A stretch of 64,000 nt of DNA from the NCBI GenBank assembly GCA_019326865.1, contig GCA_019326865.1_4101.1; one strand, written 5' to 3'. The notes under the pieces are model-generated. The model worked only from the letters and a program-made list of their open reading frames with translations, searched no databases and was not told the origin of the DNA. Positions 10,698 through 46,397 of the stretch are shown piece after piece; the stretch's first letter is position 1, and every line of letters starts with the position of its first letter. Source of the stretch: a phage. The position numbers were made by a program, and so were the translations under genes.

Positions 10698-10725
10698 TTG
10701 ACATTGAAAAATAATTATGTATAAT
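10698..10725 (+). promoter_or_regulatory. sigma70-like promoter (TTGACA, 16-nt spacer, TATAAT)
   Basis: consensus hexamers read directly; followed at 10727-10756 by a hairpin plus T6 run upstream of the ACP-like gene. Confidence 0.5.
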
Positions 10726-28609: not shown

Positions 28610-30604
28610 ATGAATAATGAAGAATTGAAAAAACTTTTGTTGTCAAAACATATTAATTCATGGGTACATTTATACAAAGGGGACTCTCATGTGAGGGATC
28701 TCCTTTCTGTTTTTGGAATAGAACCAAAAACTGATTTCGAAATATATAAAATTCTATATATGTTCATGAATGATATAACAACAGTTCCAACTGCATATTG
28801 TGGAAAAAAAGCAAGATACAAAAATTATCAAAAAGGATTTTATAAATTTTGTGATGATTATGTAATTAATAAGAAAAATACGTGTAATGTATGCCATGAG
28901 ATGTATTATAAAAATCGAACTAATAAAACAAAATCAACATTAATGAATATGTATGGTGTATCTAATGTATCCCAGATCCAAGAAGTAAAACAAAAGAAAG
29001 AAAAAACTAACATTGAACGTTATGGTGTCTCTACTAATTTACAGACAACAGAATCTAAAGAGAAAATCAAACAAACTAATATAGAGCGATATGGATGTGA
29101 ATATCCAAATCAAAACCCTGAAATATTCAATAAAGTAAAAGAAACAAATTTAAAAAAGTACGGTGTTGAATTCCAAAGTAAAAGAAATGAAGTAAAAGAG
29201 AAAGCCAAAAATACAAATATATTAAGATACGGAACTGAGTATTCTTTATCATCACCGACTATTCGTGAAAAAATCAATAAAACAAATCTTGAACGATATG
29301 GTGGAAACCCACTATCAAATAAATTTATCCAAGATAAAATAAAAAACACCAACACATTGAAGTATAATTCATTTTACCCAATGAGCAATATGAGTGTTCA
29401 GGAAAAAGTTCATAATACCAATGTGGAGAGATATGGTGTAAAACACCCAGCCCAAAATAATTCTATTATTGAAAAAATGAAAGAAACCACAAAAAATAGA
29501 TATGGTTCAGAACATTACTCACAAACTGATGAGTATAAAGAAAAAATGTCATTTGCTCGTCTAGATGAAAGATATAATATAATTGTTGCAAATATTGATA
29601 AAAACTATATTCCATTATTTGAAAACACCGACCTGATGATGAAAGTTAATACAGACGAATACCCATTTTGGTGTGAGTATTGTGATGATTTGTTTTATAG
29701 TAAGTATAAAAATCATAAAGTGAAATGTAAGTGTCAGAAAAATAATGGTCATTCATTGAAAGAGAAAGATTTAGTTGATTATATAAAATCATTAATACCA
29801 AATATGCAAATTATAGAAAATGACCGTTCAGTACTGAAACCTAAAGAGTTGGATGTGTATATCCCTGACCGAAATCTAGCTATTGAATTTAATGGTGTGT
29901 ATTGGCATAATGATGAAAATGTCAATTCCACTAAACATCAAGATAAGGTATTGGATTGTTTAAAACATGGGGTAAATCTTATTCACATTTATGAAGATGA
30001 ATGGGATAACCCATTAACAAATAAAATTATCAAGGAACGTTTAAAGAATAAACTTCTAGTGTCAAATAGAATTTATGCTAGAAAATGTACTGTTAGAAAT
30101 ATAGACAAACAAGTAAGTAATATGTTTACTAAATCACACCATATTCAAGGTGTTGCACAAGCAAGTATTCACATTGGTCTTTATTATGGAAGTGATTTAG
30201 TTGCAGTTATGACCTTTGGTAAATCAAGGTTTGATAAAAACTATGAATATGAATTAATCAGATACTGTTCATCCGGTACAGTTGTTGGTGGTGCATCAAA
30301 ATTACTAAAATATTTTGAAACAGTATATAATCCACAATCATTATTGACATATGCTGATATGGATTGGAGTAGTGGTGATCTTTATACAGTTCTTGGCTTT
30401 GAGTTTGATAGCTATACAGAACCTGGATATTTTTATTATGACCCACAAACACATGAGAGGATTTCACGTCAGAAATGTCAAAAACATAAATTGGTCAAGA
30501 AAGGTCATGATATCAACTTAACCGAGAGACAAATTTGCTGTGAGGTATTGGGATATTATAAGATTTACAACTCTGGTAATATAAAATACACAAAAAAATA
30601 TTAA
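28610..30604 (+). CDS. multidomain protein: Cys-rich N-terminus, nine tandem repeats of about 23 aa, PD-(D/E)XK nuclease-like domain, C-terminal domain of unknown function
   Basis: repeat core K-x-T-N-x-E-R-Y-G occurs nine times; ELDVYIPDRNLAIEFNGVYWH resembles the DUF559/Vsr-like nuclease core. Confidence 0.6.
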   Translation: MNNEELKKLLLSKHINSWVHLYKGDSHVRDLLSVFGIEPKTDFEIYKILYMFMNDITTVPTAYCGKKARYKNYQKGFYKFCDDYVINKKNTCNVCHEMYYKNRTNKTKSTLMNMYGVSNVSQIQEVKQKKEKTNIERYGVSTNLQTTESKEKIKQTNIERYGCEYPNQNPEIFNKVKETNLKKYGVEFQSKRNEVKEKAKNTNILRYGTEYSLSSPTIREKINKTNLERYGGNPLSNKFIQDKIKNTNTLKYNSFYPMSNMSVQEKVHNTNVERYGVKHPAQNNSIIEKMKETTKNRYGSEHYSQTDEYKEKMSFARLDERYNIIVANIDKNYIPLFENTDLMMKVNTDEYPFWCEYCDDLFYSKYKNHKVKCKCQKNNGHSLKEKDLVDYIKSLIPNMQIIENDRSVLKPKELDVYIPDRNLAIEFNGVYWHNDENVNSTKHQDKVLDCLKHGVNLIHIYEDEWDNPLTNKIIKERLKNKLLVSNRIYARKCTVRNIDKQVSNMFTKSHHIQGVAQASIHIGLYYGSDLVAVMTFGKSRFDKNYEYELIRYCSSGTVVGGASKLLKYFETVYNPQSLLTYADMDWSSGDLYTVLGFEFDSYTEPGYFYYDPQTHERISRQKCQKHKLVKKGHDINLTERQICCEVLGYYKIYNSGNIKYTKKY

Positions 30605-30642: not shown

Positions 30643-30651
30643 TGATATAAT
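30643..30651 (+). promoter_or_regulatory. extended -10 element TGATATAAT
   Basis: exact 9-mer; directly after the terminator and upstream of ORF 30679 and the dNMP kinase gene. Confidence 0.4.
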
Positions 30652-41148: not shown

Positions 41149-42129
41149 ATGGCTAAAAAAATTAATGAAGCACAAGTTAAAATCGATATCGCAGGTTTAG
41201 AATCTGATGATTTGGAAACACTATCCCGTATGTTAGCTCTTGCTGGTCAAGCTGAACGTCAAGACCCTGTGGTTGCTGCTCCAGTATCATCTATTGGGTC
41301 TATGGCTCCATCTCTACCACCTATTGCACCACTAGATCTTGATTCTATTAGTGCCGAAAAAGAAATTGGTGGAATTGAAACTTCAGTTGAAGATCCATTG
41401 GCAGCAGCAGTTGATGGTCTTTCCGCTGATGATGGTGATTTTGGTGCTGACACCGATGAAGTTGGTATTGATGCTGAATTTTCAGAACCAGGCGTAGAAG
41501 GTGAAGAAGATTTTTCTCTTGACCTTAGTGGTCAACCTCAACTAGAATCAGTTGAAGAAGACGACGATGAGGAAGAAGAAATCATCGAAGAAGAATTCGA
41601 TTTTAGTCGTATGCTATCTCTTGCTGGTATTAACGAAGAAGAAGACGACGATTTTTCCGTAGAGGGTAATACTGCTACTGATAGAGAAATGAAAGATACT
41701 CAATTTCTACCAGATCTAAGTATCTCTGAAGATGAAGAACCATCTGACAGTACTGATTATGGTCCATATAATACTGAAGTTGATGCAGTTCGTGATGGTC
41801 AACTTAAGACTAATGGTGTTGAAGGTGATCATTTTGTTGTAATTGCGAAAGGGAACCAGTTTTATTGGAGACGTGTTGTAGATGAAGATGTTGACAATCG
41901 TCCAGAACCAGAGTATTATGACAATGAAGGAAACGAAAATCGCGTTCATAAATTTGAACCAAAATCTCCAGGTACTGCATTAGGAGATAACCCACTCAAT
42001 GTTAATGAAAGTGAAGAAGATGATTCACCAGAAGGTAACACTGACTTGGAAGATGACTCTGATGAAGAAGTAGAAGATATTTTCGAAAGTCTCCAAGAAA
42101 AATATAAAAAATTTTTAGGAGACAAATAA
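41149..42129 (+). CDS. highly acidic protein
   Basis: 326 aa with long D/E runs such as SVEEDDDEEEEIIEEEFDF. Confidence 0.6.
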   Translation: MAKKINEAQVKIDIAGLESDDLETLSRMLALAGQAERQDPVVAAPVSSIGSMAPSLPPIAPLDLDSISAEKEIGGIETSVEDPLAAAVDGLSADDGDFGADTDEVGIDAEFSEPGVEGEEDFSLDLSGQPQLESVEEDDDEEEEIIEEEFDFSRMLSLAGINEEEDDDFSVEGNTATDREMKDTQFLPDLSISEDEEPSDSTDYGPYNTEVDAVRDGQLKTNGVEGDHFVVIAKGNQFYWRRVVDEDVDNRPEPEYYDNEGNENRVHKFEPKSPGTALGDNPLNVNESEEDDSPEGNTDLEDDSDEEVEDIFESLQEKYKKFLGDK

Positions 42130-42130
42130 T

Positions 42131-42526
42131 ATGCAATATAATTATCGTGAACTAGTTGAAGCGTTGGACGAAATCACCGGACGAGATGAAGAAGGAAGTT
42201 TTTCCGTTGAAGTTGATTCCGATGTTGTAGCAATTGATGTTCTTAAAGATATTACCAAATGTCTCGTTGATATTGTTGATAAGATTAAATCTGGTGAAGA
42301 TCAAAAAGAAATCGTTGATAAACTACAAAAAGCATGTGACATTTTGTCTGACATTCGATATAATGATGAAAGTACTGAAGTCGATGATGATGAAGTGATG
42401 GAAGCTATTGCTGGATGTTTTGGAACTGAAGGTATGGGTCCAACGATTGACAAAGATGGCGTACAGCACTATAATGAACCAGATGCACCATCTTATGCTG
42501 CACGCCAAGGTTATGTTGGAGACTAA
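42131..42526 (+). CDS. hypothetical acidic protein
   Basis: 131 aa ORF. Confidence 0.55.
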   Translation: MQYNYRELVEALDEITGRDEEGSFSVEVDSDVVAIDVLKDITKCLVDIVDKIKSGEDQKEIVDKLQKACDILSDIRYNDESTEVDDDEVMEAIAGCFGTEGMGPTIDKDGVQHYNEPDAPSYAARQGYVGD

Positions 42527-42531
42527 AATAT

Positions 42532-42912
42532 ATGTTTCCTGTACCATCACATAACAGTACTGAATATCAAAATGATGTACTTTCCAAAGTTAGGGAAGTA
42601 CATGAATCAGATTCAGAAATAACAGACCGTATGCTTCTGATGTCAATTTTTGAAAATTTCAGAACTGGCGGTGGTTTACGTCTTAGCAAGTTTGGGTATG
42701 GAATTTGTAAAGAAAATAATCTTTATGAATTTACAAAAATCCCCTTGCAAAGAGAATTTAAAAGTTCTATAATGTTTACATCACTTGACAGAATATGTAC
42801 TTCACCTTATTATGTTGAAGGTCAGTACATATATCTGACAGATGCAATGATAATAACTGAATTAACATTGTGTTGTGATGATTTTAAACAATTATTTTCT
42901 ATTCATATGTAA
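42532..42912 (+). CDS. hypothetical protein
   Basis: 126 aa ORF. Confidence 0.55.
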   Translation: MFPVPSHNSTEYQNDVLSKVREVHESDSEITDRMLLMSIFENFRTGGGLRLSKFGYGICKENNLYEFTKIPLQREFKSSIMFTSLDRICTSPYYVEGQYIYLTDAMIITELTLCCDDFKQLFSIHM

Positions 42913-42924
42913 GAAAAATAAATG

Positions 42925-42952
42925 TTGACAAGATAGAATGATGTGATATAAT
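42925..42952 (+). promoter_or_regulatory. sigma70-like promoter P1 (TTGACA, 16 nt, TGaTATAAT)
   Basis: consensus -35 and extended -10; duplicated about 100 bp downstream. Confidence 0.6.
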
Positions 42953-43027
42953 AAGCATCAGACATAAAGTTTTCAAGCGACACAAGATGTGAGTTTGAAA
43001 AAAATAAAAAAAAGTGATTGACAAGTT

Positions 43028-43055
43028 GAAACGATGTGATATAATGTTCACATCA
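43028..43055 (+). promoter_or_regulatory. sigma70-like promoter P2 (TTGACA, 16 nt, TGaTATAAT)
   Basis: near-identical copy of P1; A-tract immediately upstream. Confidence 0.6.
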
Positions 43056-43215
43056 AGGCAGCAAAGAGATTTACCTTTTTAAACACACGGATGATTCATG
43101 AAGTAATAAAGGAACTGATAAGTTAAATTATTTTAACACAGTTCCTTTACTTTTGCCCACGGATTGGCTATAATAGAAACTTAAACGATTTTATCCAACA
43201 AAAGGAAATATATAC

Positions 43216-44541
43216 ATGACTACTCAAAACGATATCCTGAATGTTAAACTGACTCCAAAGAAAGCTAAAGAAGCAATGGCACTAGCTGACATGATTCAAG
43301 ATAGCCTGATGATTTGGGGTAGCCCAGGTATCGGTAAGTCTGCAATTGCTCGTCAATACGCTGATGAAAATTACCCTCTGCGTAAAGATAACGAAGCTAA
43401 AATCGAGTTCATGAAACAACAAATTGAAGCTGACCCTGAAAATGCTGATCAGCTACGCCGTGAACTGGCTGCATTTGAAGCTAAACTAATCGACCAAGAT
43501 ACTAACTTCATCGATTTCCGTTTGTCTCAAATTGAACCAAGTGACCTCCGTGGTATCCCTGTACCAGAGAAGCTTTTCCGTAAAACTGACGGTTCTCTTC
43601 TCAAAGAATCTGAGCTTGCTGAAGCAAAAGATTATGTTGCTGAAACTGCTGTAGTTTGGGCTGCACCTAAAGTGCTGAAATTGCCAGAAGATTGGAAAGG
43701 GGTTATTCTGTTTGACGAAATTAACTCTGCAATGCCAATTGTTCAGGCAGCGTCTTATCAGCTAATCCTCGACCGTTGTGTTGGTGAGATGAAGCTACCT
43801 AAAACTGCACTGATTCTTGCAGCAGGTAACCGTGAAACTGATGGCGGTGTAACGTTCTCACTGGCTACACCACTACGTGACCGTATGACACACATTGAGA
43901 TGATTCCTTATCATCAAGATTGGATTAACGATTATGCAATTGGTAAACGTTTGAACCCAGCAACTGTTGCGTTCATCAACAACACAGGTTCTAAGTACTT
44001 TAACACTCTTAGCCCACAAGATCCTTCTCACAGTGGTGGTACTTCTCCACGTTCATGGGAAGCTGTAGCACGCTACGAAGATCTCAAGAAAACTAAGACA
44101 ATTGATAAAGAAGTGTTCCGTGCAATGATTGCTGGGCGTGTAGGTGAAGGTGTAGCAACTGAATACATTGAGTACGTTGATAACGTTGCTAAACTACCAG
44201 ATACTATGTCTATTCTGTCTGGTGAAATCAAAGATATCGATGCAACTCTTGATATTTCTGCGAATTATTTTATTACTTTGAACTTGGTTTATAAAATTAT
44301 CGACCTGTTCAATGAGAAGCAAGAACAACGTCTACCAGTGGAAGAATGGGGTAAACTGTGCAACAACTTCATTACCTTCCTTGACCATAACTTCTCTGCA
44401 ACTCAAGCAGAACTGGCAGTTCTGGCAATTCGCACCATTACGCTTCATAAGGTTGCGATTTCCATTAAAGATGTACCAGCGTTTAAAGATTTTATCGCTA
44501 AGTACTCTGAACTAGTTCGTAAAGCACGCTCTCTTGGGTAA
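43216..44541 (+). CDS. MoxR-like AAA+ ATPase
   Basis: Walker A GSPGIGKS, Walker B ILFDEINSA, single AAA module; 441 aa. Confidence 0.75.
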   Translation: MTTQNDILNVKLTPKKAKEAMALADMIQDSLMIWGSPGIGKSAIARQYADENYPLRKDNEAKIEFMKQQIEADPENADQLRRELAAFEAKLIDQDTNFIDFRLSQIEPSDLRGIPVPEKLFRKTDGSLLKESELAEAKDYVAETAVVWAAPKVLKLPEDWKGVILFDEINSAMPIVQAASYQLILDRCVGEMKLPKTALILAAGNRETDGGVTFSLATPLRDRMTHIEMIPYHQDWINDYAIGKRLNPATVAFINNTGSKYFNTLSPQDPSHSGGTSPRSWEAVARYEDLKKTKTIDKEVFRAMIAGRVGEGVATEYIEYVDNVAKLPDTMSILSGEIKDIDATLDISANYFITLNLVYKIIDLFNEKQEQRLPVEEWGKLCNNFITFLDHNFSATQAELAVLAIRTITLHKVAISIKDVPAFKDFIAKYSELVRKARSLG

Positions 44542-44562
44542 TTAACAAAGAGTGGTTGACAA

Positions 44563-44591
44563 GAAGGATACGATATAGTATCCTTCTTTTA
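44563..44591 (+). terminator. intrinsic terminator
   Basis: perfect 9-bp stem GAAGGATAC/GTATCCTTC, loop GATATA, T-run. Confidence 0.7.
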
Positions 44592-44615
44592 TCTTAACTA
44601 AACGAGGAAATATAC

Positions 44616-46040
44616 ATGTCGGATAACAAATCTTCATCTAAGTTTAATGAAGTATCACCAGAACTCCAAAAGGAATGTCAAGATCGATTGGTTCTGGCTC
44701 GTACATCTTTGATGTTAACTGCTCCGTTCTTTGGTGTTTTGGCTTCGCGTTTACGTCCTGTTCCTAATAATACATGGTGTCGTACACTAGCAGTTGATGG
44801 GAAACATTTATTCTACAATGTAGAATTTGTTATGGGCATCCAAGATCAATCTAAAAAGAAAGAGTACGAAGATGCTATTCGTGAAAAACATCCAGAGGTT
44901 ACTGATGAACAATTAAAAGAAATGACAGAAGGTCTGACAGATGAAAACCTCATTGCAGTGATTTGTCATGAAATTTTGCATTGTGCTTACGACCACTTCC
45001 TTCGTCGTGGAATGCGTGATCCACAACGATACAATCGTGCAGCAGATTATGCAATTAACCAAATTATTGTCCGTGAGAAAATTGGAAAAATCCAAAGCTC
45101 ATGGTTATATGATAAAAAATATGAAGGAATGACCGCTGAAGAGATTTATATTCTTCTGGAAGATGAAGAACAAAAAGAAGAAGGTGAAGGGAACGGTCAA
45201 CCACAAAGCGGTGGTGGTGAAGGTGAAGGTAAAAATCGCGGAACTTTTGGTGATATCAAAGATGGTAAGGGTAAACCAAAAGGTACAACAATTGACCAAC
45301 ATGACGTTCCACAAGAAGGCCAAGACGGTGGTTCAAGTGAACAGCAAAAACGCGATTATATGGATGATTTCAAAACAGCAATGATGAATGCTGCACGTGC
45401 TGGTGGCACACCAGCAGAAATCGCTCGTATGATTAATAACTTCAAAGAACCAAAGATTGATTGGCGTTCTAAACTTCAACGCACTCTTCGTAGCTGGTTG
45501 AAGTCTGATGCAACTTATCAAAATCCAGCACGTCGTTCATGGGGTGCAGGTTTTGGTTCTAATGGTTCATTTTATGGTAATCCAATTTATCCAGGGATGA
45601 AACCAGATGATGATATTGATATTGCAATTGCACTCGATGCTTCTGGTTCTATTTCCGAAGACATGCTTCGTGATTTTATTAGTGAAGTTCTTGGTATCAC
45701 TAAACAATTTAAACAGTTTAAAATTCGTATCATGACATTTGATACTGAAGTTTATACTGTAAAAGATTACAAAACTGGTGAAGAACGTAAGATTCTGGAA
45801 TATCCAGTAAAAGGTGGTGGTGGTACTGACTTTGAAGCAGTATGGGTTCATATGAAGAATGACAACTATAAGCCTAAACAGCTTGTAATGTTTACTGATG
45901 GTGAACCGTGGCAGTCATGGGGTGATCCTAACTACTGTAAAACACTGTTTGTGATTCACAGTAACCCAAATAAAGTTGCACCATTTGGTGAAACAGTACA
46001 CTACGAGTATGAAGCAGACAAAAAACGTCAACGTAGTTAA
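44616..46040 (+). CDS. VWA-domain protein with N-terminal HExxH metallopeptidase-like domain
   Basis: HEILH zinc-binding-type motif; MIDAS motif DASGS in IAIALDASGSISEDM; 474 aa. Confidence 0.7.
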   Translation: MSDNKSSSKFNEVSPELQKECQDRLVLARTSLMLTAPFFGVLASRLRPVPNNTWCRTLAVDGKHLFYNVEFVMGIQDQSKKKEYEDAIREKHPEVTDEQLKEMTEGLTDENLIAVICHEILHCAYDHFLRRGMRDPQRYNRAADYAINQIIVREKIGKIQSSWLYDKKYEGMTAEEIYILLEDEEQKEEGEGNGQPQSGGGEGEGKNRGTFGDIKDGKGKPKGTTIDQHDVPQEGQDGGSSEQQKRDYMDDFKTAMMNAARAGGTPAEIARMINNFKEPKIDWRSKLQRTLRSWLKSDATYQNPARRSWGAGFGSNGSFYGNPIYPGMKPDDDIDIAIALDASGSISEDMLRDFISEVLGITKQFKQFKIRIMTFDTEVYTVKDYKTGEERKILEYPVKGGGGTDFEAVWVHMKNDNYKPKQLVMFTDGEPWQSWGDPNYCKTLFVIHSNPNKVAPFGETVHYEYEADKKRQRS

Positions 46041-46052
46041 GTACTAAATAAT

Positions 46053-46084
46053 GAGAACGGAAATTTTCCGTTCTCTTCTTTTAT
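46053..46084 (+). terminator. intrinsic terminator
   Basis: stem GAGAACGG/CCGTTCTC, T-run. Confidence 0.7.
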
Positions 46085-46087
46085 AAG

Positions 46088-46116
46088 TGAGACAACTCAC
46101 AAAAATATGATATAAT
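46088..46116 (+). promoter_or_regulatory. extended -10 promoter (TGaTATAAT)
   Basis: exact 9-mer at 46108-46116, weak -35. Confidence 0.4.
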
Positions 46117-46151: not shown

Positions 46152-46397
46152 ATGGAACAAGAAAATAATCAAATTCAACTAACCCTTCTAGACCTAATCA
46201 ATGCAGCAAAAATCATGGAAGCTGCTGTTGCCCGAAATACATTTAAAGTTGAAGAACTCGTGGATGTTTCCCCAGTTGTCGCCAAATTTGTTTCTTTTGC
46301 AAATGAAGCACTTGAAGATATTAAAGCTCAAGAAGACGCTGCTAAAGAAGAATCTGAATCACAAGATATTAAAGCTCAAGAAGATAAAGGAGAATAA
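46152..46397 (+). CDS. hypothetical protein
   Basis: start moved to MEQENNQ with GGAGAG RBS. Confidence 0.55.
   Translation: MEQENNQIQLTLLDLINAAKIMEAAVARNTFKVEELVDVSPVVAKFVSFANEALEDIKAQEDAAKEESESQDIKAQEDKGE

Follow-up and report, generated by a model that had tools for sequence, protein, structure and literature searches.

Gene content of the locus

The stretch of phage DNA analysed here (contig GCA_019326865.1_4101.1 of NCBI GenBank assembly GCA_019326865.1; 64,000 nucleotides, hereafter the window) carries, at positions 42,913 to 46,084, a two-gene unit in which a MoxR-class AAA+ ATPase is followed by a partner combining a putative zincin-type domain with a VWA domain (Table 1). The unit is an already described, widespread phage module of the N4 gp24/gp25 type. 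Its 3.9-kb region shares 99.9% identity with Escherichia phage UE-S1 and about 94% with 121Q, PBECO4, phAPEC6, and other Asteriusvirus jumbo coliphages; judged by these identities, the source is a 121Q-like Asteriusvirus jumbo coliphage. The counterparts of the two proteins are gp563 (annotated 'ATPase') and gp564 in 121Q, and gp265c and gp264c in phAPEC6. An intergenic spacer of 303 bp (42913-43215) lies 5' of the ATPase gene.

The motifs behind the MoxR-type call made in an earlier sequence-only reading of the window are in place: Walker A (GSPGIGKS) spans residues 35-42 (nt 43318-43341) and Walker B (ILFDEINSA) residues 164-172 (nt 43705-43731). G35, G38, K41, S42, and E168 are invariant across 43 ATPase homologues, as are N205, R223, and R279, whose positions in the structural model correspond to sensor 1, the arginine finger (before strand 225-229), and sensor 2. 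The protein falls into PHROG phrog_1297 (1e-106). Foldseek searches with its AlphaFold model (built on 43 sequences; mean confidence score pLDDT 86) place NorQ chains at ranks 1-7 (E 2e-7 to 1e-6, target TM score 0.55-0.63), followed by CbbQ2 (rank 20), McrB, and dynein AAA modules, so that NorQ and CbbQ2 are its closest structures. The secondary-structure string of the model, taken by itself, places a long β-hairpin (114-123/140-149) after strand 2 and ahead of Walker B, a candidate for the helix-2 insert, and short strands (188-193) ahead of strand 4, a candidate for the pre-sensor-1 hairpin. As in MoxR systems, a gene for a VWA/MIDAS (metal ion-dependent adhesion site) partner is linked to the ATPase gene: the two are adjacent here, and N4, rV5-like, PA5oct-like, and prophage-like loci show such a linkage as well. 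AAA_5, AAA_3, and bpMoxR match 26, 19, and 8 of the 43 homologues, respectively, and an alphaproteobacterial relative passes AAA_5 (28.4 against a cut-off of 22). The ATPase itself has no NCBIfam match and no match in a PDB sequence search, and neither CobS, CobT, and CbbQ_C nor other specific MoxR subfamilies match it in Pfam (E <= 0.01) or NCBIfam. Its membership of the MoxR class is therefore accepted on the fold and the family, as modelled and aligned, and not on a direct profile match. Profile searches, proposed earlier as a check on the pair, give a divided result: DUF2201_N and DUF2201 are found above cut-off in the partner, whereas the ATPase stays under the Pfam cut-offs and AAA_5 and AAA_3 are hit by its relatives.

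The partner consists of a putative N-terminal zincin-type domain, a low-complexity linker (residues ~186-330), and a C-terminal VWA domain. Both motifs previously pointed out, HEILH (residues 118-122, nt 44967-44981) and the MIDAS motif DASGS (residues 341-345, nt 45636-45650), are found. The MIDAS residues, invariant in the family, are D341-x-S-x-S, T404, and D428, which gives the DxSxS...T...D pattern on a Rossmann-like α/β fold that defines VWA/MIDAS domains. The Pfam families DUF2201_N (PF13203; 120.3 bits, cut-off 23.2) and DUF2201 (PF09967; 75.1 bits, cut-off 26.4) are matched by the partner and by all 40 of its homologues, while Peptidase_M48 and VWA_CoxE matches are found in 11/40 each. 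H118, E119, H122, C123, and D144 are invariant in the family and H127 is nearly so; C123, D144, and H127 are candidates for further zinc ligands. The hhalign comparison with E. coli HtpX reaches 77.6%, limited to 26 columns around HExxH, and that with SprT 20%. Fold searches with the partner returned VWA matches only, the NorD and midasin VWA domains included, and PDB sequence searches with the protein and its profile gave noise or motif-level similarity (the integrin I-domain; MJ1213 around HExxH, E ~0.7). No transmembrane segments are predicted (maximum hydropathy 1.66), which indicates a soluble protein.

The linker, although disordered, also contains invariant residues, namely D227 and H229 (IDQHD), W309 (RRSW, with R306 nearly invariant), P326, and G327. 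The last of these belong to a conserved loop, residues 297-329 (RRSW ... PG). Such residues might latch the zinc site or form a segment gripped by the ATPase pore.

In many records the partner carries the name 'HNH endonuclease': RefSeq 121Q (with the note 'Zn-dependent hydrolase'), PBECO4, GAP32, KB57, many N4-like phages, and PHROG 1314. As no HNH family is matched in Pfam by the partner or by any of the 40 homologues, this name is, on profile evidence, a propagated misannotation. Other mislabels are 'homing endonuclease' (Cassandra) and 'putative membrane protein' (CBB).

Table 1. Features of the two-gene unit and its borders (positions in the window; dG, folding free energy; ORF, open reading frame; RBS, ribosome-binding site)
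Feature	Position	Strand	Details
A-tract (UP-like) and promoter P1	42913-42952	+	TTGACA 42925-42930, 16-nt spacer, TGaTATAAT 42944-42952
Hairpin 1, in the P1 transcript	42970-43001	+	A-run after stem; dG -10.8 kcal/mol, z -4.96
A-tract (UP-like) and promoter P2	42997-43045	+	TTGACA 43018-43023, 16-nt spacer, TGaTATAAT 43037-43045
Leader hairpin, terminator- or attenuator-like	43108-43154	+	10-bp outer stem AAAGGAACUG/CAGUUCCUUU, U-rich tail UUUACUUUU
Candidate promoter P3	43146-43174	+	TTTACT-17-TATAAT, 10/12; overlaps tail of leader hairpin; putative function
MoxR-class AAA+ ATPase ORF	43216-44541	+	441 aa, 49.5 kDa; RBS AAGGA 43202-43206
Intercistronic terminator	44561-44588 and T-run (element 44556-44592)	+	11-bp stem; dG -18 kcal/mol, z -5.0
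Peptidase-VWA partner ORF	44616-46040	+	474 aa; RBS GAGGA 44604-44608
Intrinsic terminator closing the unit	46053-46075 (hairpin; element 46053-46083)	+	bidirectional, T-run; dG -14.7 kcal/mol, z -3.4
Next promoter	46088-46116	+	TGAGACA-N13-TGATATAAT; serves a small ORF, the 218-aa ORF, SLOG/DprA-like, and ThyA; 3' boundary of the unit

Relatives and earlier descriptions

N4 gp24 matches the ATPase (BLASTP, 2e-29) and N4 gp25 the partner (1e-26), and the two N4 genes are adjacent and in the same order; by sequence and synteny, the pair described here is orthologous to them. Both are among the 14 core genes of N4-like phages, belong to the N4 middle genes, and are listed as of unknown function (PMC4193335, PMC2784036). 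Of 50,697 phage records searched by tblastn, 684 gave a match to the partner and 840 to the ATPase, with matching taxon counts, and the pair is present in about 700-800 sequenced phage genomes. Its carriers are RaK2/121Q-like jumbo phages, PA5oct-like phages, rV5-like Vequintavirinae, N4 and N4-like podoviruses, and further Cronobacter, Klebsiella, and Erwinia myoviruses. A search with the partner profile extends to ~17,900 cluster representatives (50% identity) at E <= 1e-10.

In rV5-like and PA5oct-like phages the distance between the two genes stays at or below ~4 kb. In the rV5-like Escherichia phage CarlMeissner (Bas48; locus L010, 159-6455) they are on opposite strands, ~3.6 kb apart, and a gene annotated 'anti-sigma factor', specific to Vequintavirinae, stands before the peptidase-VWA gene. 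In Brucella pecoris and Ancylobacter sp. (loci L030 and L031), an AAA_5 ATPase and a DUF2201 protein are encoded 1-2 kb apart among small ORFs; the Brucella pecoris pair adjoins genes for an ATP-dependent DNA ligase and a DNA polymerase III beta clamp, in what looks like the replication module of a prophage-like element.

The same architecture, predicted to be a MoxR protein and a vWA protein with a metallopeptidase at its N-terminus, was described by Iyer et al. 2021 (Viruses 13:63) in 'group 2.2' jumbo phages, and a role in virion assembly and the proteolytic processing of structural proteins was proposed by analogy with p618/p892 of Acidianus two-tailed virus (ATV) (PMC7824862). That paper also discusses coliphage 121Q, which may belong to this group. 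In GenBank, the phAPEC6 proteins are labelled 'MoxR ATPase' and 'N4 gp25-like protein' (gp264c), and the rV5 and PVP-SE1 records already use 'MoxR ATPase'. As both the architecture and the phAPEC6 annotations were published earlier, the module as such is a known finding.

Promoters and leader

The 303-bp spacer contains the two near-identical promoters reported for it by the sequence-only reading, each consisting of TTGACA, 16 nt, and TGaTATAAT after an A-tract. P1 lies exactly at the position given there (42925-42952), while P2 is found at 43018-43045 and not at 43028-43055, a difference of 10 nt. The two 28-mers agree at 24 positions and start 93 bp apart. Perfect TTGACA-N16-18-TATAAT sites, of which P1 and P2 are two, number four in 64 kb against 0.11 expected, and four were reached in 0/100 shuffles; the fourth, with a 16-nt spacer, lies at 10698-10725 (+). 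In 121Q, Turkey3, and A4, substitutions in P1 and P2 are nearly all in the spacers, the sole hexamer change being TATAAT to TACAAT at P1 of 121Q. P1 is kept, with divergent spacers, in Turkey3, A4, and Klebsiella phage OU509535; P2 is kept in 121Q, Turkey3, and A4 and is degenerate in OU509535, and EJP2 has an equivalent of it (TTGACA-17-TATAAT). Retention of hexamers while spacers drift is the pattern expected of working promoters, and on these comparisons P1 and P2 are real consensus promoters, beyond chance. The candidate P3 is identical at 29/29 positions in 121Q and Turkey3, and its -10 element reads TTATAAT in A4 and TATCAT in OU509535.

Two hairpins lie in the spacer. The first, in the P1 transcript, is not a terminator on either strand; its stems are kept in Turkey3 and A4 and deleted in OU509535. 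The leader hairpin is located ~60 nt 3' of P2, before the ATPase start (dG -17.4 kcal/mol, z -5.3), and in OU509535 one base pair is lost from both of its arms with the pairing kept. CBB, Erwinia pEa19, and EJP2 have a different sequence in the same order, i.e., a promoter over the upstream stop codon, a GC hairpin with a T-run, and the ATPase. A terminator-like hairpin, of differing sequence, between the promoter(s) and the ATPase start is found in Asteriusvirus, a Klebsiella jumbo phage, Mimasvirus CBB, and Eneladusvirus (e.g., L044 3605-3645, L006 2519-2552, and L005 2339-2388). The leader (43046-43215) is 92.9% identical to that of Turkey3, compared with 88% and 85% for the two coding sequences. 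A set for covariation analysis was sought by a degenerate pattern scan of IMG/VR, which gave only two contigs. As the order of promoter, hairpin, and ATPase is kept across relatives, attenuation or regulated read-through appears to be conserved; the leader hairpin appears to provide either such control or a short leader RNA.

In its strong form, the latter option states that P1 and P2 mainly give a short, abundant leader RNA (~100 and 195 nt) ending at 43108-43154, with ATPase mRNA arising through regulated read-through or from the weaker P3. The U-rich tail of a hairpin 60-100 nt 3' of P2, the same promoter-terminator-ATPase order in CBB, Erwinia pEa19, EJP2, and the Klebsiella phage, a leader more conserved than the flanking coding sequence, and the identity of P3 in three phages would all fit, as would the expression of non-coding RNAs from ORF-free regions in the related PA5oct. 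However, the U-tract is interrupted (UUUACUUUU), and termination may therefore be weak; no Rfam family matches the leader or any other part of the spacer, and the codon bias of the ATPase, together with its detection by proteomics, argues that much transcription reaches the gene. A predominant leader RNA is unlikely, but deserves consideration.

The terminator announced between the two genes is real and far more stable than shuffled controls. Its loop and stem top differ in 121Q and Turkey3 with the pairing kept, and a -35-like TTGACA (44556-44561), whose accompanying -10 (TATCCT) is weak, overlaps it. The terminator that closes the unit is annotated as such in the UE-S1 record.

Expression level and timing

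Among the window's 69 ORFs that encode 100 aa or more, the ATPase has the highest frequency of optimal codons (Fop, 0.611; E. coli-preferred codons), compared with 0.517 for the tail sheath and 0.534 for the partner. Its G+C content (41.6%; window mean 34.3%) is likewise the highest of the 69, and the ORF thus ranks above those of the tail sheath and the tail tube. This codon bias and the intercistronic terminator suggest much more ATPase than partner, and by analogy such an excess would fit a ring with a single adaptor as in NorQD (PMC13036017). In phAPEC6 virion preparations the ATPase was detected (6 peptides) and the partner was not, which is consistent with an excess of the former.

Consensus -35 and -10 elements with UP-like tracts should serve the host holoenzyme unaided. 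In the related CBB, promoters of the consensus class cluster in what is presumed to be the early region (PMC5259590), and PA5oct relies on the rifampicin-sensitive host polymerase. 'Pre-late' expression is a fair inference from the promoter sequences, and the early, host-polymerase-driven expression put forward by the sequence-only reading is plausible. Neither the UE-S1 paper nor the Sharanji paper analyses promoters or transcripts at the locus, and the CRISPRi-ART and phage transposon-sequencing papers do not cover N4 or the gene-pair family.

Proposed mechanism and client

The preferred reading, with a probability of about 0.5, is that of an N4 gp24/gp25-type module in which a MoxR ATPase works with a zincin-VWA co-chaperone through a long flexible linker and is expressed as outlined here. 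It builds on what the comparisons above establish, i.e., the orthology, the domain content, the conserved ATPase, HExxH, and MIDAS residues, the promoters, and the hairpins. By analogy with NorQ-NorD and CbbQ-CbbO, the ATPase would assemble into a hexameric ring, on which one partner would dock via its VWA domain; ATP hydrolysis might then twist or stretch the linker of the partner, and a MIDAS-bound client would be remodelled and presented for limited proteolysis, or the peptidase would be unlatched. Transcription would start before the late phase from two strong sigma-70-type promoters, which with their UP-like A-tracts should need no late factor. The conserved leader hairpin would throttle transcription, and the second hairpin would lower the amount of partner relative to ATPase, consistent with ~6 ATPase subunits per partner.

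The client may tentatively be sought, at somewhat less than even odds, in the assembly or maturation of large phage protein complexes, as proposed by Iyer et al. In Asteriusvirus, Eneladusvirus, and Mimasvirus alike, the pair keeps its place immediately behind the tail and neck genes, and the ATPase was detected in the phAPEC6 virion preparations. A 'second structural module' lies beside gp24/25 homologues in N4-like roseophages (PMC4193335), and ATV p618/p892 provide a precedent (PMC7824862).

Several observations weigh against the module as proposed or against its assembly role. The ATPase has only sub-threshold Pfam matches (AAA, Mg_chelatase, AAA_3, and TniB); among the MoxR models, AAA_3 reaches 16.3 bits, below its cut-off of 27, and AAA_5 gives no match. 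Fold searches match the N-terminal domain of the partner to no solved peptidase fold, and the literature searched holds no experimental work on any member of the gene pair. The N4 pair is situated among middle and nucleotide-metabolism genes, the alphaproteobacterial pair adjoins DNA ligase and beta clamp, and the CBB orthologues, unlike their neighbours, lack a 'structural protein' label. As the phAPEC6 virion list includes ThyA, RecA, SSB, and topoisomerase, the ATPase may be an abundant contaminant there. With respect to early timing, phages of the group encode a sigma-70-family factor; 14 other TGnTATAAT elements are found in the window, 12 of them on the same strand and several before structural genes; and the Erwinia and Pectobacterium relatives have, before the ATPase, the 'TGAAACG' class that the CBB authors tied to DNA-synthesis genes.

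Part of this evidence is what would be expected if the same machine had its client in the replication, nucleotide-metabolism, or host-takeover phase and not in virion assembly, for example by stripping or cleaving DNA-bound proteins or by maturing an enzyme complex of the replication phase. N4 gp24/gp25 are middle genes beside dCTP deaminase, 5' of the replication genes, and share the short list of 14 N4-like core genes with polymerases and SSB. SLOG/DprA-like and ThyA genes lie downstream here, ThyX is encoded just 3' of the pair in a metagenomic phage, the ligase and clamp accompany the alphaproteobacterial pair, and the promoters are not of the proposed late type. Nevertheless, gene neighbourhood in phages often reflects timing and not function, assembly chaperones can be early products too, and neither a DNA-binding domain nor more than poor similarity to SprT (20%) is found. 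A client of this phase is a real though improbable alternative to one in assembly.

A more far-reaching version of the proposed module would be a latent two-component AAA+ metalloprotease, essential in mid-infection from N4 to 350-kb jumbo phages, whose zincin is latched by the linker motif D227-x-H229 and unlatched when the MoxR ring pulls the VWA domain, and whose synthesis is gated by the read-through leader. Its client, shared by the carrier groups, would be found, for example, in the folding or processing of a giant virion protein or in the removal of proteins from replicating DNA. Such a latent protease must be regarded as quite unlikely.

NorQ and CbbQ being the closest solved structures, the pair could also be a chaperone for metal or cofactor insertion of the NorQD, CbbQO, CoxDE, or CobST kind, activating a phage or host metalloenzyme such as ribonucleotide reductase; VWA_CoxE in 11/40 partner homologues and the NrdD/NrdG and other metalloenzymes encoded nearby would agree. 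Yet nothing in those systems corresponds to the invariant HExxH domain, CbbQ_C, CobS, and CobT domains are not matched, and no candidate target enzyme common to all carrier phage groups was identified, which makes this role very doubtful. Least likely is a role in counter-defence, with a host immunity protein being degraded or remodelled. MoxR-vWA pairs are used in bacterial conflict systems (PMC7159879) and early-type promoters would suit, but N4-like core status and stable synteny over several genera contrast with the patchy spread expected, and no PADLOC model matches either protein.

Neighbouring genes and other features

Upstream of the pair lie genes for the tail sheath, three tail-tube proteins, head completion, and five virion structural proteins; downstream are two small ORFs, a SLOG/DprA-like gene, and the thymidylate synthase gene (ThyA), followed by convergent structural and tail-fibre genes. 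Farther 5', structural genes alternate with NrdD/G, deoxynucleoside monophosphate kinase, tRNA nucleotidyltransferase, Nudix, and glutaredoxin genes. The location 'inside the structural region' assigned earlier is therefore true only locally, as structural and metabolic genes are interleaved, which is normal for this phage genome: virion genes are found directly 5', and the pair itself heads a 5.4-kb non-structural island that runs from the ATPase through thymidylate synthase. No third conserved partner gene emerges, as the 'anti-sigma factor' neighbour of the rV5 type is restricted to Vequintavirinae and the counterpart of Cassandra_0138 maps elsewhere in the window (29393-30580). The spacer contains only implausible ORFs of 22-50 aa as candidates for a small protein, and the downstream ORFs of 81 and 218 aa have no Pfam family. 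The 81-aa ORF (46152-46397) includes a perfect 22-nt direct repeat, AAGATATTAAAGCTCAAGAAGA, at 46315-46336 and 46363-46384 (48 nt apart), which corresponds to a repeated acidic peptide segment.

The promoter at 46088-46116 is kept in 121Q, Turkey3, EJP2, and Erwinia pEa19 and is the counterpart of CBB site Porf_218, which belongs to the published 'Promoter 1' (TGAAACG) class. Promoter-like sites also occur within three upstream structural ORFs, namely a perfect one at 42447-42475 and four scoring 11/12 at 41744-41772, 41891-41919, 42336-42364, and 42785-42813. The consensus of sites 41744, 42447, and 42785 is lost in Turkey3, and they are therefore rejected as promoters and put down to chance, the coding sequence being AT-rich; 121Q and Turkey3 both retain site 42336 and, for the most part, site 41891, which are candidate promoters.

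Extended -10 elements (TGNTATAAT) are scattered over the window, with 14 of 15 on the + strand (9109, 13347, 19700, 20870, 22589, 25014, 25078, 30643, 31514, 33013, 37235, 42944, 43037, and 46108) and one on the - strand (24679). Many of them have a TGGAC, TGAGAC, or TTGAC-like element ~23 nt 5' of TATAAT, which suggests a phage-wide promoter class, used before structural genes too. The element at 30643 is directly 3' of a terminator hairpin.

Significance

Few phage gene pairs still without an experimental function are as widespread as this one, and identification of its client would fill a gap for N4-like, rV5-like, and RaK2/121Q-like phages, several of which are in therapeutic use. The range of MoxR-VWA chaperones would gain a proteolytic variant as well. 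Little here goes beyond what has been published; modestly new are the very high apparent expression of the ATPase and the conserved terminator-like leader before it, along with the finding that the published proposal of virion assembly draws no clear support from the genomic contexts. The regulatory anatomy of the locus does not appear in the literature searched. In practical terms, the label 'HNH endonuclease', given to the partner in many records and in PHROG 1314, is an error. What the sequence-only reading observed is confirmed, save for the one P2 coordinate; its interpretation is partly supported, being right on the protein families, wrong on CobS/CobT, and unproven on timing.

Comparison with known systems

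The closest likeness is to N4 gp24/gp25, a core pair of Schitoviridae that is orthologous, adjacent, and identical in gene order and domain content. The jumbo-phage ATPase (441 aa) differs from N4 gp24 (352 aa) by an extra two-helix insert (residues 54-92) after the Walker A helix, and the partner differs from gp25 by a longer low-complexity linker. The N4 pair is read by phage RNA polymerase II (RNAPII) as middle genes, whereas the jumbo-phage pair stands behind sigma-70-type promoters. From the group 2.2 pair of Iyer et al., found in the same kind of phage, no structural difference is apparent; promoters, N4 orthology, and replication-module contexts are absent from that paper.

The putative active-site helix of the partner resembles that of M48 zincins of the HtpX/Ste24 type, its '...E..A.I.HE..H' context aligning to E. 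coli HtpX. This likeness covers 26 aligned columns only, and the phage partner is soluble, without transmembrane segments. The T4-like phage CobS/CobT-like genes, to which the pair had been likened, belong to the same broad AAA+ clade and have a VWA partner, but that comparison fails: Pfam and NCBIfam give no CobS/CobT match, and the architecture of their partner is different, without the HExxH domain.

ATV p618 (MoxR) and p892 (VWA) form a virus-encoded pair with an experimentally supported role in tail development, as cited in two reports (PMC7159879, PMC7824862). They differ in belonging to an archaeal virus and in having no peptidase domain, and they are likened to the phage pair by description, not by sequence. 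NorQ-NorD and CbbQ-CbbO, finally, provide the closest ATPase structures and the same partner order of N-domain, linker, and VWA domain, and the 'finger-in-pore' and linker-stretching model of NorQD is the template for the mechanism proposed here (PMC13036017). Unlike the phage pair, to which they are 12-15% identical, these systems are cellular, their partners have no peptidase domain, and nothing in their ATPases corresponds to an extra C-terminal helical domain present in the phage protein; they act on metalloenzymes (cNOR and Rubisco).

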